The translations under genes were made by a program, and so were the position numbers. Shown here in pieces: positions 13,834-37,203 of a stretch of 40,157 nucleotides of DNA. The stretch's first letter is position 1; each line of letters begins with the position of its first letter. The stretch is taken from NCBI GenBank assembly GCA_041649655.1, contig JBAZMO010000002.1:1-40157 (forward strand), given 5' to 3'. The notes beneath the pieces are model-generated. The model worked only from the letters and a program-made list of their open reading frames with translations. It had not been told where the DNA came from and ran no database searches. This DNA is from Patescibacteria group bacterium. GTDB taxonomy: Bacteria > Patescibacteriota > Patescibacteriia > 2-01-FULL-39-33.

Positions 13834-14292
13834 ATGAGTGATTCCTATATTTCCCCGGAAGGGTTGAAAAAAATAAAAGAAGAATTAGAAGTCCTAAAGA
13901 CCGCCGAACGGCCGGAGGTTATCGATCGCATTGCCAAGGCCAGGGATTTGGGCGACTTGTCGGAGAATGCCGAATATCATGATGCTCGCGAGAAGCAGAG
14001 CTTTATCGAAGGCCGGATCCAGGAGTTGGAAGCCATCATTAAGAACGCCGTCATTATTAAATCCAAGAAATCAGATATCGTGCAAATCGGTTCGACCGTT
14101 CACGCTTCTTGCGACAACGGCACGAAGGTCAAATACCAAATCGTCGGACAAAGCGAGGCCGATCCGGCTGAAGGCCGAATTTCTCATGAGTCGCCTTTGG
14201 GCAAGGCCTTTTTGGGCAAGAGCATCGGCCATGAATTCGAATTGAAGATTCCGGCCGGCGTCCTGAAATGCCAGATCGATAATATTGAATAG
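13834..14292 (+). CDS. greA: transcription elongation factor GreA
   Basis: 152 aa with a coiled-coil N-terminus carrying GDLSENAEYHDAREKQ. Confidence 0.9.
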   Translation: MSDSYISPEGLKKIKEELEVLKTAERPEVIDRIAKARDLGDLSENAEYHDAREKQSFIEGRIQELEAIIKNAVIIKSKKSDIVQIGSTVHASCDNGTKVKYQIVGQSEADPAEGRISHESPLGKAFLGKSIGHEFELKIPAGVLKCQIDNIE

Positions 14293-14475
14293 TGTTAATA
14301 ATATTGAGTAATCAACCAATGGGAGGGTCGGAAGATGGCTGGAGGATCTGGAGAGGGTTTTAGCGGTTTTTTTAGCGCTGAATAGCTAGCGGAAATAAAA
14401 GAAATTTAAAAAGCCATAGAACAGCTGTACTCAATTTTATTATTTTTTCTTAACAACAGTACGATTTAACCAAAC

Positions 14476-14505
14476 ACCGCTCTGGCAATAGCCAGAGCGG
14501 TTTTC
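14476..14505 (+). terminator. intrinsic terminator
   Basis: 11-bp stem accgctctggc/gccagagcggt followed by TTTTC. Confidence 0.75.
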
Positions 14506-14517
14506 TTAATTCAATGG

Positions 14518-14535
14518 TGTTTTTAGTTATCCACA
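14518..14535 (+). promoter_or_regulatory. conserved motif TGTTTTTAGTTATCCACA containing a perfect DnaA box (copy R1)
   Basis: TTATCCACA at 14527-14535, 9 nt upstream of a -35 TTGACA. The same 18-19-mer recurs at 14784 and 16251. Confidence 0.6.
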
Positions 14536-14544
14536 ACATTGGCC

Positions 14545-14572
14545 TTGACAAAATGATCTAGTGTGATATAAT
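14545..14572 (+). promoter_or_regulatory. consensus sigma70 promoter with extended -10
   Basis: TTGACA, 16 nt spacer, TGaTATAAT. Confidence 0.7.
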
Positions 14573-14578
14573 GAATTT

Positions 14579-14657
14579 AAGGGAATGTGTTCCGTTAATT
14601 ACGGAATCCTCGGTCTTCGCAGATAAAATCTCGGTTAATACCCGAGATTTTATTTTT
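14579..14657 (+). ncRNA. candidate ~80-nt leader or small RNA (promoter, hairpin, intrinsic terminator) upstream of a tRNA
   Basis: Lies between the consensus promoter and a 10-bp-stem terminator (aaaatctcgg/ccgagatttt plus ATTTTT, 14625-14657). Contains hairpin ttccg-ttaatta-cggaa. CCTCGG (14608) and TCTCGG (14629) can both pair with CCGAGA. Confidence 0.35.
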
Positions 14658-14682
14658 GTGTTAAAATTACTATGGTCTGACC

Positions 14683-14754
14683 GGGCCCGTAGTTTAGCGG
14701 TTAGAACACATTCTTGCGAAGACTGAGACGCCGGTTCGAATCCGGTCGGGTCCA
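14683..14754 (+). tRNA. tRNA, hand-folded anticodon GCG (Arg), atypical
   Basis: Cloverleaf: acceptor GGGCCCG/CGGGTCC, D stem GTTT/GAAC with a GG loop, anticodon loop TTGCGAA, T arm GCCGG-TTCGAAT-CCGGT, discriminator A. Carries G3:U70 and a U:C mismatch in the anticodon stem. Confidence 0.7.
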
Positions 14755-14783
14755 GACCCTAAGGGCATTCCGTTTCGGCGGAG

Positions 14784-14821
14784 TGTTTTTAGTTATCCAC
14801 AGCCGGCAGTTTGTTAGTTTG
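14784..14821 (+). promoter_or_regulatory. DnaA-box repeat unit R2 (TGTTTTTAGTTATCCACAG-N8-TTGTTAGTTTG)
   Basis: Perfect TTATCCACA at 14793-14801. The 19-nt and 11-nt blocks are identical to the unit at 16251-16287. Confidence 0.6.
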
Positions 14822-14838
14822 CGTTGGGGGGGTATAAT
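14811..14838 (+). promoter_or_regulatory. putative promoter with a G7 tract in the spacer
   Basis: TTGTTA, 16 nt spacer, TATAAT. The spacer ends in GGGGGGG (14826-14832). Confidence 0.45.
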
Positions 14839-14888
14839 TAAAGGTGAGAGATTCATTAACTCATTTTTATTTATTAACTAAAAAAAAT

Positions 14889-15506
14889 ATGTTTCAAAAA
14901 AAACAAGTTGCTGTTCAAACCAAAATGGTTTCCAGTACAAAATTAGTCAGCGTCACAGCGCTTTTGGTCGGAGTCGTTTTGGGCGGATTCGTGCTTAATA
15001 TGGCGGGAGCGGCGACTGTTTGCAGGGAAAATAGCTGTACAATCGTCAATAAAATAAACGTCGCTTCAAGGTCAATTCAGGATTATATTAATAGTCGGGC
15101 GAATGAGTCGGACTGGAATCTTGTTTATAGTCCTGATAGTAAAGATATGGCTAAATTAATTAAAGGTGTTGATAGCGGTCTTGAAACAAAGGTGGTTGTC
15201 ACTCAGCAAATTAATAATAGTATGGGTCAAAAATTGTCATACACTTGCAATAGTATAACTACAAGTCAAGCACCCAACAATAATGTAGTCACTTGTGACA
15301 CAGGAACTTTTTTAAACACAAAAGCATCGTCAGATGGCGTTTCTGCTTATAGTGTTTCCTCTTATCAATTCGCAACTAATCATAATGGCCTTTTAAATAT
15401 GATTACTTATGACAAGCTTGGTAAAGTAGTGGATATCATTAATATGGGTATGGGGCCTAAGGAAGCTGGTCAGGTTTATTTTATCAGATGGTATCAGAAA
15501 AAATAA
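14889..15506 (+). CDS. membrane-anchored/secreted hypothetical protein
   Basis: ATG at 14889 is preferred over the GTG at 14844, which overlaps the predicted TSS. N-terminal TM (LVSVTALLVGVVLGGFVL), a Ser/Thr/Asn-rich domain with 4 Cys, and AT-rich codon usage unlike the flanks. Confidence 0.6.
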   Translation: MFQKKQVAVQTKMVSSTKLVSVTALLVGVVLGGFVLNMAGAATVCRENSCTIVNKINVASRSIQDYINSRANESDWNLVYSPDSKDMAKLIKGVDSGLETKVVVTQQINNSMGQKLSYTCNSITTSQAPNNNVVTCDTGTFLNTKASSDGVSAYSVSSYQFATNHNGLLNMITYDKLGKVVDIINMGMGPKEAGQVYFIRWYQKK

Positions 15507-15519
15507 TTTGTTTTCATAC

Positions 15520-15551
15520 AAAAAATCCTGATCGAACGGTCAGGATTTTTA
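15520..15551 (+). terminator. intrinsic terminator
   Basis: Stem atcctga/tcaggat flanked by an A-run and TTTTATTGTTTT. Confidence 0.75.
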
Positions 15552-15566
15552 TTGTTTTAAATTAGT

Positions 15567-15575
15567 TGTGGATAA
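15567..15575 (-). promoter_or_regulatory. perfect DnaA box (TGTGGATAA on the plus strand)
   Basis: Lies 6 nt upstream of the -35 of the dinJ-yafQ promoter. Confidence 0.55.
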
Positions 15576-15581
15576 CTTATG

Positions 15582-15610
15582 TTGACATTGTATTGGCAAT
15601 GTAATACAAT
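15582..15610 (+). promoter_or_regulatory. sigma70 promoter of the toxin-antitoxin operon
   Basis: TTGACA, 17 nt spacer, TACAAT. Confidence 0.65.
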
Positions 15611-15635
15611 GAAAACAGCAAATAATTATAAAAAT

Positions 15636-15920
15636 ATGACTGAATTAGTTCAAGCTCGCGTTGATAAAAAAATTAAAAATAAAGCGACCAAGATATTTCA
15701 TAGTTTAGGGCTTGATATGAGTACGGGCATTAAGATTTATTTGAATAAGGTTGTTAGTGAACAGGGCGTGCCTTTCCAACTCTTGACGGAAAACGGATTT
15801 ACGGTTGAGCAGGAACAGAGTTTGTTGGACAGCATAGCTGAAATGAGGGCAGATTATAAATCCGGACGATTAAAGCCAGCTAAGAATTTTAGAGAGTTGC
15901 AAAAAGAATTGTTGGCATAA
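15636..15920 (+). CDS. dinJ: RelB/DinJ-family type II antitoxin
   Basis: The MTELVQARVDKKIKNKATKIFHSLGLDMSTGIKIYLNKVV ribbon-helix-helix pattern is typical of DinJ. The upstream ATGs (15579, 15609) overlap the promoter, so the start is set at 15636. Confidence 0.8.
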   Translation: MTELVQARVDKKIKNKATKIFHSLGLDMSTGIKIYLNKVVSEQGVPFQLLTENGFTVEQEQSLLDSIAEMRADYKSGRLKPAKNFRELQKELLA

Positions 15921-15923
15921 TTT

Positions 15924-16205
15924 ATGTCCTATACGATACGTCGTTCTAATAAATTCAAGCGGCAATACAGAAAATTGCAGAGATCAGGCAATATTAAGCT
16001 TGTTAAAGAATTAGATTGTATAATTGTTTTATTGGCTGGCGGTGAAATATTGCCCTTAAAGAATAATAATCATAGATTAATGGGAAATTTGAGGTTTCTT
16101 TATGAATGCCATATCGCCTCAAATTGGTTATTGGTCTATTGTTATGATCATGAAATTCTGTCATTAGAATTGATAGCGACCGGCTCGCATAGCGATTTGT
16201 TTTAA
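15924..16205 (+). CDS. yafQ: YafQ/RelE-family mRNA interferase toxin
   Basis: 93 aa, starting 3 nt after the antitoxin stop. Motifs KFKRQYRKL ... HRLMGNL ... ECHI..NWLLVY ... TGSHSDLF. Confidence 0.85.
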   Translation: MSYTIRRSNKFKRQYRKLQRSGNIKLVKELDCIIVLLAGGEILPLKNNNHRLMGNLRFLYECHIASNWLLVYCYDHEILSLELIATGSHSDLF

Positions 16206-16220
16206 AACTTGAATCAATTA

Positions 16221-16258
16221 AAAAAAAACACCGCTGGAATTATCCAATGGTGTTTTTA
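16221..16258 (+). terminator. imperfect hairpin terminator, possibly bidirectional (yafQ / gyrB)
   Basis: A8 run, stem aacaccgctgg/ccaatggtgtt (one mismatch, one G:U), then TTTTT. Confidence 0.5.
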
Positions 16259-16287
16259 GTTATCCACAGGATCAGCTTGTTAGTTTG
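16251..16287 (+). promoter_or_regulatory. DnaA-box repeat unit R3
   Basis: TGTTTTTAGTTATCCACAG-N7-TTGTTAGTTTG, with perfect TTATCCACA at 16260-16268. Direct repeat of 14784-14821. Confidence 0.6.
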
Positions 16288-16310
16288 TAATACAAAAAAT
16301 TAATTAAATG

Positions 16311-16353
16311 CAAGGGATTCCTCCACTTCGCCCTGCTTCGGTCGGAATGACAC
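16311..16353 (-). repeat. half-copy of a REP/MITE-like palindromic element (GTGTCATTCCGACCG...GTGGAGGAATCCCTTG)
   Basis: Begins 5 nt after the gyrB stop. In minus orientation it closely matches the left arm of the 25546-25665 element. Confidence 0.7.
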
Positions 16354-16357
16354 TGAA

Positions 16358-18535
<2,178 letters not shown>

Positions 18536-18559: not shown

Positions 18560-18568
18560 TTTTCCACA
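18560..18568 (+). promoter_or_regulatory. near-consensus DnaA box TTTTCCACA
   Basis: One mismatch to TTATCCACA. Adjacent to the AT-rich tract. Confidence 0.3.
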
Positions 18569-18727
18569 TCCTTATTTTAGCATTTTTTAGGGGCGGAGGC
18601 AAGAGGAAATCCGGCTTTATTTCCAGCATGGTTATTGACTTTTTGATTGAGCCATTGTAAGGTATTTTCAGTGGTTTTTAGAGCACCTTTAAAACATAAT
18701 AAGCAACCCGAAGGAGGAACAGGCCAT

Positions 18728-25528: not shown

Positions 25529-25545
25529 TAAGCAACATACTTAAG

Positions 25546-25665
25546 TGTCATTCCGACCGCAGCGAAGCGGAGTGGAGGAATCCCTTGAATTTATTATTTT
25601 AATTTAATTTAATACAAGGGATCCCTCCACTACATCCGGAGTACCGGATTCCGGTCGGGATGACA
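25546..25665. repeat. 120-bp palindromic REP/MITE-like element between scpA and scpB
   Basis: Outer arms TGTCATTCCGACCG / CGGTCGGGATGACA, inner arms GTGGAGGAATCCCTTG / CAAGGGATCCCTCCAC, around an AT-rich centre. Confidence 0.8.
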
Positions 25666-35296: not shown

Positions 35297-36224
35297 GTTA
35301 AATCAGCTTCCGCAACCCGAAAAACAAGTTGAATTTATTGACTCGTTTAGAAGAGAAAAGATAAAAGAGATCAAGGGAATAACTAAGCGAGAAGTTTTAA
35401 TATATTTCTCAGATTTTAAGAAGAATCATCCATTAGGAGCAATTACTTGGGAAGATAAAACATGTTTTGCAGATGTTATTGAGGGTTTAGATAAAAAAGG
35501 AGTTGATATAGTTATCCATAGCCCCGGTGGTTCTGCAGAAGCTACTCAATCATTAGTTTGTATGCTACGTGAGCATTTTGATAATGTTCGTTTTATTGTA
35601 CCCAATATGGCAAAAAGTGCCGCAACAATGATGGTGCTTTCAGGCAATGAAATTTTAATGGATGATCGTTCCGAATTGGGTCCGATTGATCCACAGATAC
35701 AAATAAATGGTAATTTTGTTCCCGCACAAACATTAATTGATGGATTCGAAGAAGCAAAAAAAGTTATTACTGATGCCGGAACGGATATTTTACCTGCATA
35801 TCTACCGCTTCTTAATAAATATGATTTGCATATTTTACAAATTTGTGAGAACGCTAAAAGGCTTTCAGAAGAATTAGTAAAGGATTGGTTAAGTAGGTAT
35901 ATGTTTCTGGGAGATGAAAAGGCAGCCGAAAAAGCCGAAAATATTGCAAAAAACTTAGCAGATCATAAAAAATATTTATCTCATGGTCGACCAATCGGAA
36001 TAAATGAAGCAAGGTCTATCGGCATTAGGATTTCTGATTTGAGAGATAATTTACCACTGCGAGAAAAGATTTGGGAGTTGTATTGTATTCTTGAAATTAT
36101 GCTCGATCGTTCTCCGATAATAAAATTGTATGAGAATAGTAATGGTGTGTTTTTAGCGAAAAATATTCCATTTCAACAAATAATGATTCCTCAAGTGCCT
36201 CAAGAACAAAAAACGTCGAAATAA
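35268..36224 (+). CDS. ClpP/crotonase-fold serine peptidase (SppA/S49-like, SDH 'serine dehydrogenase proteinase' type)
   Basis: VIHSPGGSAEA ... VPNMAKSAATMMVLSGNEILMDDRSELGPIDPQ core. C-terminal SHGRPIGINEARSIG. Confidence 0.7.
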   Translation: MPIFQRLLAELNQLPQPEKQVEFIDSFRREKIKEIKGITKREVLIYFSDFKKNHPLGAITWEDKTCFADVIEGLDKKGVDIVIHSPGGSAEATQSLVCMLREHFDNVRFIVPNMAKSAATMMVLSGNEILMDDRSELGPIDPQIQINGNFVPAQTLIDGFEEAKKVITDAGTDILPAYLPLLNKYDLHILQICENAKRLSEELVKDWLSRYMFLGDEKAAEKAENIAKNLADHKKYLSHGRPIGINEARSIGIRISDLRDNLPLREKIWELYCILEIMLDRSPIIKLYENSNGVFLAKNIPFQQIMIPQVPQEQKTSK

Positions 36225-36269
36225 ATAATAATGAAAGAGAAATTGATTATGAAATGGTGGTTTTTTGGT

Positions 36270-36278
36270 TGTGGATAA
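36270..36278 (-). promoter_or_regulatory. perfect DnaA box (TGTGGATAA) upstream of an extended -10 (TGtTATAAT, 36294-36302)
   Basis: Read directly. This is the fifth perfect copy I found in the window. Confidence 0.45.
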
Positions 36279-36414
36279 CTTTTTATGAATTTGTGTTATA
36301 ATAATATCAATAAAGTTTTCTCCGCCGTTGTTAGATTTTTGGAAGGTGGAATCTAACCGAAAAAAATATGCCTAAGATAGAGTTAAAAAGCAAATGTCTG
36401 CTATTTTTTAATAC

Positions 36415-36443
36415 TTGACATTTTTTTTAATTAGGTATATATT
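36415..36443 (+). promoter_or_regulatory. sigma70 promoter (plus strand)
   Basis: TTGACA, 17 nt spacer, TATATT. Confidence 0.55.
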
Positions 36444-36449
36444 AGAGTT

Positions 36450-36536
36450 CCTAGAGGTAATTTAGATAAAACAAAAAGCTCCGATGTTAACCTCGGAGCT
36501 ATCTGCAAGCCATGGATTAAAACCCATGGTTTTTTC
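36450..36536 (+). ncRNA. candidate ~87-nt small RNA convergent with, and antisense to, the 3' end of the long ncRNA
   Basis: Runs from the promoter at 36415-36443 to terminator ccatgg-attaaaac-ccatgg plus TTTTTT (36510-36536). No ORF. Confidence 0.4.
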
Positions 36537-36928
36537 GTTATTGGATTAAGGGCCAATAAATCCCTTGCTTCCTATTCCTATCGGTCGTCTTTGACACACA
36601 TCGGGAATGGTCGCCGCTTCGCCCGCATTAACTTCCTAGTTTTCGGGTCGCGTCGCGACCACCGAAAAACCAGATGATAACCAGGGGCGCACTGCTTGTA
36701 TGGGTTTGCCATAGTAAGGTGCTTATTAATAAAGCACTGCAAATGCATTTTCTGGGCCCAAACAGTGTTGGCACAAATTAAAAACCCGTGCCAAATTCTG
36801 ACGTAGGCAAGCTTTTATTTTGCCTTTCGGCGTTGATCCTTTTTGAAGACCTACGCCAGAATTTGAAACAGGTTTAACTGTTTAGCTTTTTAACTTTTGA
36901 GAGGGATCAGCTCTTTTTGTAAATTTCT
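36468..36928 (-). ncRNA. candidate ~460-nt GC-rich structured non-coding RNA of unknown class
   Basis: Minus-strand consensus promoter (36935-36963) and minus-strand terminator agctccga-ggttaaca-tcggagct plus TTTTTGTTTT (36500-36466). At least 8 hairpins. A G:U pair and a GAAA tetraloop exist only on the minus strand. No ORF of 60 aa or more. GC visibly higher than the surrounding cargo. Confidence 0.55.
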
Positions 36929-36934
36929 GACATC

Positions 36935-36963
36935 ATTATATCACATCTGAGAGCAAAAGTCAA
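36935..36963 (-). promoter_or_regulatory. consensus sigma70 promoter with extended -10 (minus strand)
   Basis: On the minus strand: TTGACT, 17 nt spacer, TGaTATAAT. The -10 context (GTGATATAATGA) is the same as the promoter at 14545. Confidence 0.7.
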
Positions 36964-36985
36964 AAAATGTCAAGGGTTTTAACGT

Positions 36986-37203
36986 TGCGGCGGCGCGCCG
37001 TGACTTCGTCACGGCAACAAAAAATCTTCGCCCTCGGCGAAGAGCTGGAATTCTGGCGGGAAATGCGCCGGAGCGGGCGGGCAAAATTCCTTCCCCCCCA
37101 AACCCCCAGTCATTTTTGCCCGCGATCCGCTCCGGCGAAAATTCTGAGAAAATCCTCATGGATTTTCTTCGTAAAATGTTCGAACTTCGTCTAAGAGGCA
37201 CCA
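36986..37203. repeat. IR2 right copy (native integrase 3'UTR at attR)
   Basis: Reverse complement of 33156-33377 with C7 instead of G9 and a different hairpin sequence (gccgtgac-gaa-gtcacggc). Confidence 0.9.
37016..37042 (-). terminator. intrinsic terminator inside IR2-R (minus strand)
   Basis: Same cttcgcc/ggcgaag stem plus T-run when read on the minus strand. Confidence 0.7.

Follow-up and report, generated by a model that had tools for sequence, protein, structure and literature searches.

Why does a Patescibacteria genome carry four perfect DnaA boxes (TTATCCACA) within 1.74 kb beside gyrB, and which protein reads them? The window analysed here is a stretch of 40,157 nucleotides from an uncultivated Patescibacteria group bacterium (assembly GCA_041649655.1, contig JBAZMO010000002.1), whose genome (1.016 Mb, 99 contigs) was examined together with eight relatives. 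An earlier note on this DNA had read the boxes as operator-type sites at about -45 of promoters, which would couple transcription to DnaA, or alternatively as a datA-like or origin-proximal cluster. Judged by their sequence context, the four boxes by gyrB are copies of a promoter-upstream element that occurs throughout the lineage and are not origin marks. Their likely reader is DnaA.

Five perfect boxes, and no more, were found in the window, at 14527 and 14793 on the plus strand, 15567 on the minus strand, 16260 on the plus strand and 36270 on the minus strand, as had been reported. None of them lies inside an open reading frame (ORF). Dinucleotide-preserving shuffles contained 0.30 boxes on average, which agrees with the earlier estimate of about 0.3, and 0 of 100 shuffles reached five. 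Three of the boxes, named A (14527), B (14793) and C (16260) here, share an identical 19-mer, GTGTTTTTAGTTATCCACA, which begins at 14517, 14783 and 16250. The -35-like hexamers follow at the spacing claimed for them, 9 nt to TTGACA for box A, 9 nt to TTGTTA for box B and 8 nt to TTGTTAGTTTG for box C. The relB(dinJ)/yafQ promoter has its TTGACA 6 nt past the reversed box at 15567-15575. When +1 is taken about 7 nt past the -10 element, boxes A and B lie between about -52 and -44 (centres about -48) and the relB box about -50 to -42 (centre about -46), all on good sigma-70-type promoters. At the sequence level the operator-type reading of boxes at about -45 is well supported, both by these statistics and by a fixed spacing to the -35 hexamer in the genome and the genus; it does not extend to box C, which has no gene downstream.

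The genome-wide count that had been proposed as a check gave 50 perfect copies, when about 9 are expected from base composition. Forty of them are intergenic against 1.27 expected under an order-3 Markov model, a 31-fold enrichment (intergenic DNA makes up 12% of the genome), and the ten boxes in coding sequence are at the chance level. The gene calls behind these numbers are rough (a greedy choice of the longest ORFs, minimum length 70 aa), and the intergenic and coding counts may shift by a few boxes. TTATCCACA is among the top intergenic 9-mers and is outranked by overlapping words of one repetitive extragenic palindromic (REP)-like element alone. Single-mismatch variants are hardly enriched. 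The flanks favour A-G on the 5' side and G or A on the 3' side, and box plus flanks make up the 12-mer AGTTATCCACAG. A sigma-70-like promoter starts 2-22 nt from 27 boxes, and 13 of the 177 near-consensus intergenic promoters (about 7%) carry a box at most 30 nt upstream of the -35 hexamer. The earlier note had counted a uniform scatter of the 19-mer through the genome against its reading. The 9-mer is indeed scattered genome-wide, as a promoter-associated element; the 19-mer is confined to its three copies in the window and is absent from the rest of the 1.016-Mb genome.

The distance from box to -35 hexamer is restricted. Within 40 nt downstream of the boxes in this genome, the gaps to TTGAC were 5-7, 16 and 20 nt for the reversed form TGTGGATAA and 7-10 and 18 nt for TTATCCACA, and no others occurred. 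Among nine genomes of the genus (G000, the present genome, to G008), TGTGGATAA-N(0-30)-TTGAC gave 101 matches versus 0 for a control word. The gap was 5 nt in 55 of the 101 and 4-7 nt in 72, with secondary peaks at 15-18 nt (15 matches) and 25-27 nt (5 matches), which corresponds to a period of about 10.5 bp. The other orientation, TTATCCACA-N(0-30)-TTGAC, gave 36 matches versus 1 for the control, half of them at gaps of 8-10 nt. With both orientations pooled, 137 matches stand against 1 in the control. The element thus comes in a major class, TGTGGATAA-N5-TTGACA (N6 at relB/yafQ here), and a minor class, TTATCCACA-N8-10-TTGACA, which includes units A, B and C. The linker sequences vary; therefore the element is not one copied cassette.

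Orthologous promoters gain, lose and turn the box. At the tRNA-Arg promoter G000 has it in forward and G008 in reverse orientation, and G004 lacks it; the relB/yafQ promoter of G004 carries a one-mismatch box in the same place (GGTGGATAA-N6-TTGACA). Such turnover argues for selection on a protein site and not for inheritance of a repeat. The reversed word was used as control for counts in other genomes. Genomes of the same genus hold 24-60 boxes each versus 0-6 control words, and genomes of the family and class hold 5-59. Genomes of Buchanan-, Uhr-, Falkow-, Wolfe-, Staskawicz-, Gracili-, Peri- and Saccharibacteria hold 5-36 boxes each. In Bacillus, Alkaliphilus, Pelolinea and Bacteroidota 10-19 boxes per Mb were counted, and the control reached from about a quarter of the box count (Pelolinea) to about the same number.

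The genes behind the boxes are a mixed set. Pfam searches with 18 downstream proteins gave no common theme: the tRNA-Arg, two RelB/YafQ modules, an Xer-type integrase, one MerR-type and two TrmB-type regulators, a GNAT protein, a glycosyltransferase, an ADP-forming acyl-CoA synthetase and large surface proteins are all found behind boxes. Given this diversity, the element would be a general promoter accessory, one that mobile cargo often carries. Shine-Dalgarno-like sequences are rare before the ORFs behind box promoters, and several ORFs start 4-25 nt past the -10 element, which hints at leaderless or short-leader mRNAs.

The locus itself is composed of short units, each with a hairpin terminator as its boundary and a sigma-70-type promoter as its start. 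The gene order is mreC, a gene for a PBP2-type transpeptidase, greA, tRNA-Arg, a hypothetical gene, genes for a RelB-type antitoxin and a YafQ-type toxin, convergent gyrB, and genes for a radical-SAM protein and a class II aminoacyl-tRNA synthetase. The features from greA to unit C lie on the plus strand unless stated otherwise. The annotated greA gene (13834-14292) is followed by a terminator hairpin found by terminator scan as an inverted repeat (ACCGCTCTGGC..GCCAGAGCGGT with a T-run, 14476-14501), and then by unit A, with its 19-mer at 14517-14535 and box A at 14527-14535. The promoter of the next unit, TTGACA-16-(TG)TATAAT (14545-14572), matches the consensus at 12 of 12 positions. It precedes a leader of about 105 nt (14579-14682), in which terminator scan and folding gave two hairpins, the second (14621-14655) terminator-like, and the tRNA-Arg with anticodon GCG (14683-14754), identified by tRNA search. 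The leader sequence CTCGGTCTTCGCA (14609-14621) pairs at 12 of 13 positions with the anticodon arm of its own tRNA (14715-14727), with a CGC codon opposite GCG, and leader and arm covary (GTC/GAC here, ATC/GAT in relatives). This pairing may control processing or read-through. When 14300-16400 and 36200-37000 were searched for known RNA families, the tRNA alone reached the threshold, and all others scored far below their gathering scores.

Unit B follows the tRNA, and the 5' part of its 19-mer (14783-14801, box B at 14793-14801) closes the tRNA trailer hairpin in the predicted fold. Its promoter, TTGTTA-16-TATAAT (14811-14838, 10 of 12 matches), stands before a hypothetical membrane or secreted protein, for which no Pfam match was found. 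The ORF was called from GTG 14844 to 15506, and the likely start is ATG 14890, which gives the protein a hydrophobic N-terminal segment. A terminator hairpin from the terminator scan (15521-15550) separates this gene from the reversed perfect box on the minus strand (15567-15575, read as TGTGGATAA on the plus strand), which is of the major genus-wide class. The promoter scan placed the relB/yafQ promoter, TTGACA-17-TACAAT, at 15582-15610, where an operator-like inverted repeat (15580-15594 and 15603-15617) is also located. The toxin-antitoxin (TA) pair spans 15636-16205, with the antitoxin gene ending at 15920 (PF04221, E 8.6e-10) and the toxin gene at 15924-16205 (PF15738, E 3e-22). Behind yafQ, an A-run/T-run hairpin (16219-16262, fold -15.9 kcal/mol) is predicted to act as a bidirectional terminator, and its 3' arm is the start of the third 19-mer. 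Unit C, recognised by its repeats (16250-16312), consists of this 19-mer, box C (16260-16268) and a unit-B-like promoter, TTGTTAGTTTG..TAATTAAA.

A REP-like dispersed element, CAAGGGATTCCTCCACT..CGGTCGGAATGACA (16311-16356), identified from repeat counts, lies directly past the stop codon of gyrB (16358-18415, minus strand, Pfam search). Another copy was found at about 25538-25600. The genome has about 60-70 copies, often as inverted pairs, and the general form CAAGGGATTCCTCCACT-[variable hairpin]-CGGTCGGAATGACA yields its most over-represented intergenic 8- to 10-mers. The element is found in the same-genus genomes too, and it does not belong to the box system. Beyond gyrB, the AT-rich tract and the box-like word reported by the earlier note were both recovered and could be described more closely. 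The tract, which lies in the 5' leader of gyrB, is an 8-mer, TAAGAAAC (read as AGTTTCTT on the gyrB strand), repeated 13 times in tandem (18421-18521, tandem repeat scan). The word TTTTCCACA, a relaxed DnaA box, is placed at 18560-18568 on the minus strand, 5 nt downstream of the -10 element of the gyrB promoter TTGCCT-17-(TG)cTAAAAT (18574-18602, minus strand); match, promoter scan and genus alignment place the two. The fifth perfect box of the window (36270-36278, minus strand, an exact match to TGTGGATAA on the plus strand) is followed by TGTTATAAT. The region past it (36270-36540) holds the promoter-like TGTTATAAT at about 36296, TTGACA-17-TATATT at 36416 and two terminator hairpins, and no ORF of at least 70 aa. 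Small RNAs or peptides may be encoded there.

Units A, B and C are paralogous copies of one junction, made up of a terminator, a box and a promoter. In each copy the T-run of the 19-mer is the U-tail or the 3' stem arm of the preceding terminator, namely the greA hairpin, the tRNA trailer hairpin and the 16219-16262 hairpin. Since the T-run is a terminator tail, what had been described as a repeated unit is a compact terminator-box-promoter junction. Units A and C are identical at 26 of 27 nt (ATTCAATGG../ATCCAATGG..), and the match of B and C runs collinearly for about 63 nt, through TTGTTAGTTTG to TAATTAAA. Unit C is therefore a chimera with an A-like left and a B-like right part, a make-up which suggests recombination at the shared core. 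Its -10 element has decayed to TTAATT, and it is an orphan that faces the gyrB 3' end. An att-site or target-duplication model for the three units was considered and set aside: the segment has no integrase, and no unique history can be reconstructed. The identical 19-nt context is explained by local paralogy and terminator tails, and not by a larger functional unit.

The segment with the boxes is also peculiar to this lineage. The gap between greA and gyrB is 2,065 nt here (14293-16357) versus 53 to 826 nt in seven sister genomes (53-80 nt in G005, G006 and G007), in which greA and gyrB are convergent direct neighbours and the box-bearing segment is absent. Other small genes occupy the gap in G001 and G008, and REP-like elements in G003. 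Across G000, G001, G002 and G008 the gap holds unrelated small secreted-protein or pilin-like genes, REP elements and TA cargo, and in G002 a small membrane protein stands in it behind TGTGGATAA-N5-TTGACA-17-TATAAT. The module of leader and tRNA-Arg is located elsewhere in the genomes of G004 and G008, with the leader 83-84% conserved. On this comparison the gap is an insertion hotspot of the genus, and its 2.07 kb here are lineage-specific cargo. The box density by gyrB is explained by short cargo units (leader and tRNA-Arg, small membrane or secreted protein, relB/yafQ), together with the paralogy of A, B and C.

The clustering invites three explanations other than a promoter element. gyrB is often near dnaA in bacteria, and four perfect boxes with an AT-rich tandem repeat at 18421-18521 as unwinding element could mark the chromosomal origin or its surroundings. 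This has almost no probability left. The dnaA gene (C8:11539-13002, minus strand), dnaN and the divergent rpmH-rnpA pair all lie on another contig, C8, with boxes of their own, and the GC skew changes sign around dnaN/dnaA there, which disposes of the skew switch and the dnaA location proposed for checking at this locus. In the window the skew is positive in 20 of 20 2-kb bins and nearly all genes are on one strand. In G002, which has a 1.2-Mb genome, dnaA and greA are on one contig 360 kb apart, and in G003, where dnaA is on a different contig, at least 126 kb separate the locus from the nearest contig end. An oriC assignment was rejected: an origin would have several boxes within about 250-500 bp beside its unwinding element, and the boxes here are hundreds of nucleotides apart, each at its own promoter. 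The AT-rich repeat is 2.1 kb away in the gyrB leader and is not conserved in G001 or G003, where the gyrB leaders carry other inserts. The boxes could also be mainly a DnaA sink, acting by titration or datA-like hydrolysis and lying near promoters because intergenic space is scarce, with the cluster as a local sink. The 40-50 high-affinity boxes of a 1-Mb genome would necessarily bind an appreciable share of DnaA, and the four perfect boxes in 1.74 kb make up 10% of the intergenic ones, with neighbouring boxes 266, 774 and 693 nt apart. When the 40 intergenic boxes were dealt randomly over intergenic DNA, 1.5% of 5000 trials placed four or more of them inside 1.8 kb; the local density is only modestly unusual once the genome-wide enrichment is allowed for. 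A sink of this kind is quite improbable. Titration does not require a fixed, helically phased spacing to the -35 hexamer, and the minimal datA has 183-262 bp with co-oriented boxes, a site for integration host factor (IHF) and a position near oriC (PMC5742627), whereas here one of four boxes is inverted, each is tied to a promoter and dnaA is 360 kb away in G002. The segment is absent from seven sisters and so cannot be a conserved control locus; a datA-like locus was rejected on this absence and on geometry (span, box orientation and the tie to promoters), and with it the datA-like or origin-proximal half of the earlier reading. A tighter cluster also exists elsewhere. At C17:8709-8765, four DnaA boxes (two perfect, TTATCAACA and TTTTCCACA) lie in 56 bp, the tightest cluster of the genome, with an AT-rich stretch alongside (C17:8700-8770) between two convergent genes. 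Of all sites in the genome, this one is the strongest candidate for a true DnaA-box cluster or a secondary origin-like site. Very improbable, too, is that the cluster by gyrB is a mere by-product of duplication or cassette insertion, with one junction copied three times and the copies devoid of regulatory meaning. The paralogy described above, the orphan unit C and the lineage-specific segment are what such an account predicts. It explains the 19-mer and not the 9-mer: the box at 15567 and 46 other boxes of the genome have unrelated flanks, and the spacing is fixed across nine genomes despite varied linkers. As to copy number it is compatible with the promoter element and is no true alternative.

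Several observations point to DnaA as the reader. The DnaA encoded on C8 aligns with domain IV of the E. coli protein (1J1V, E 4e-17), and the equivalents of R399, P423, D433, H434, T435 and H439, which we take to be the DNA-contact residues of that structure, are all identical. The 9-mer with its flanks equals what is presumably the highest-affinity E. coli box, R1/R4 (G before, G after). An asymmetric site that is used in either orientation fits a monomeric reader such as domain IV and not the palindrome-binding TrmB or MerR proteins. A second kind of box position was found at gyrB. A block of the form TTGnnn-17-TGnTAAAAT-N5/6-TGTGGA(A/T)AA is kept in 7 of 8 genus genomes, while its spacer and flanks diverge. 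The box in it, TTWTCCACA, covers about -2 to +8 (centre about +3), which would be a repressor position. It is a perfect TTATCCACA in G003 and varies at position 3 alone (A/T), which fits the classical degeneracy of the DnaA box, TTWTNCACA. The dnaA-rpmH promoter region also holds a perfect box, lying between -35 and -10 in the dnaA direction, a position that would fit autorepression. A box in reverse orientation within about 1 kb of the dnaA match was found in G001, G002 and G003.

If DnaA is the reader, a single molecule on one high-affinity box centred at about -46 to -50 would lie just upstream of the -35 hexamer, always on the same side of the DNA helix. From this position, or at a distance of one or two more helical turns, it could contact RNA polymerase and modulate it in a class-I-like manner. 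By E. coli precedent (PMC8203912), the effect might be stabilisation at low DnaA occupancy and repression once ATP-DnaA oligomerises. On the gyrB and dnaA boxes, over the core promoter or +1, DnaA would block initiation. The 40-50 strong boxes would jointly titrate DnaA as well, an effect that can coexist with a role in transcription and does not compete with it. That DnaA binds, in which sense it regulates and how this ties to the replication state are inferred.

The strongest competitor is a genuine promoter-upstream site read by something else, either a monomeric Patescibacteria factor or RNA polymerase itself (the alpha C-terminal domain or a sigma extension), so that the identity with the DnaA box would be coincidental or competitive. 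This is rather unlikely, and several observations nevertheless favour it. One orientation and spacing is strongly preferred (54% at N5), which would equally fit RNA polymerase or another factor, and the genome encodes candidate regulators, of which two TrmB-type and one MerR-type stand behind boxes themselves. The boxes are single, whereas chromatin immunoprecipitation sequencing in E. coli showed that DnaA needs box pairs 2-3 bp apart at almost all of its in-vivo targets (PMC11317965). No recurrent second box was found within 60 nt on either side of the 40 intergenic boxes (27 hits with at most 2 mismatches versus about 17 expected); pairs in the E. coli manner were rejected for the promoter boxes, and only C17, C8 and C18 have multi-box sites among those 40. 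Other points likewise weigh against DnaA as the regulator here. The diverse downstream genes show no coherent replication-linked regulon, the box-bearing promoters are already near consensus, and box C has only a dispersed REP-like element and the gyrB 3' end on its 3' side. The tRNA-Arg promoter of G004 is good on paper without a box, so the box is not needed for promoter recognition. A search for sequencing runs with the locus gave two DNA metagenome runs and no RNA run. Against a reader other than DnaA stand the match to the highest-affinity DnaA box, the intact contact residues of the protein, the same word in the dnaA-rpmH region and in the four-box cluster on C17, and a gyrB site that varies in the manner of a DnaA box. 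A core promoter element does not fit the use of both orientations and of positions one and two helical turns out. TrmB and MerR proteins bind palindromes and not an asymmetric 9-mer. DnaA thus stays the probable reader.

The arrangement has parallels in known systems and departs from each of them. DnaA is established as a transcription factor (PMC8203912). In the promoters it regulates (dnaA, nrdAB and guaB of E. coli, and those of B. subtilis and Caulobacter; PMC8203912), a 9-mer box likewise lies in or beside a sigma-70-type promoter. The high-affinity upstream boxes of nrdAB can stabilise RNA polymerase (PMC8203912), which resembles the upstream boxes described here, and boxes over the core promoter of E. 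coli dnaA repress it (PMC8203912), as the boxes of gyrB and the dnaA region are placed. The known regulons are compact and replication-related and use box pairs in E. coli (PMC11317965); here single perfect boxes in phased position serve about 7% of strong promoters, before diverse genes and in a whole lineage. E. coli datA and the DnaA-box clusters (DBCs) of B. subtilis share with this locus several strong boxes outside oriC, and some DBCs regulate their neighbours (PMC5742627, PMC3245932). The spread over 1.74 kb, the mixed orientation and the absence of the segment from the sisters set the present cluster apart from datA. The core of R1 and R4 in E. coli oriC is identical to TTATCCACA; DnaA monomers bind these two boxes whatever the nucleotide, and the boxes anchor the origin complex. 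Unlike R1/R4, the boxes here are scattered over promoters a long way from dnaA, and neither a box array nor an unwinding element adjoins them. Class I activator sites, such as those of CRP at -61.5 and -72.5, are also upstream of the -35 hexamer at positions about one helical turn apart (gaps of 5, 16 and 26 nt here). In contrast to them, the present element is asymmetric, occurs in either orientation with a 4-nt offset and stands at promoters already near consensus. A literature search found no paper that links DnaA boxes or TTATCCACA to promoters of Patescibacteria or the candidate phyla radiation, and the single-box, fixed-spacing architecture, genome- and lineage-wide, was not found in the literature searched.

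The established role of DnaA is that of an initiator which also controls a small regulon. The boxes put its strongest binding word, rigidly phased to -35 hexamers, across a whole group of ultra-small bacteria. A tentative and somewhat doubtful extension would make DnaA the most widely used transcription factor of a lineage poor in such factors: through single boxes the state of the initiator would bear on about 7% of strong promoters, gyrB and dnaA would be repressed through boxes at +1, mobile cargo such as TA modules and integrases would carry the box as a portable plug into the cell cycle of the host, and the core of terminator tail plus box might serve as a recombination point for cassettes. 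For annotation, clusters of perfect boxes in Patescibacteria do not mark origins, and origin finders that count boxes would be misled by them. If DnaA reads the sites, binding to a single box would be sufficient in vivo, unlike in E. coli, and these minimal cells would couple broad transcription to replication status through a single protein.

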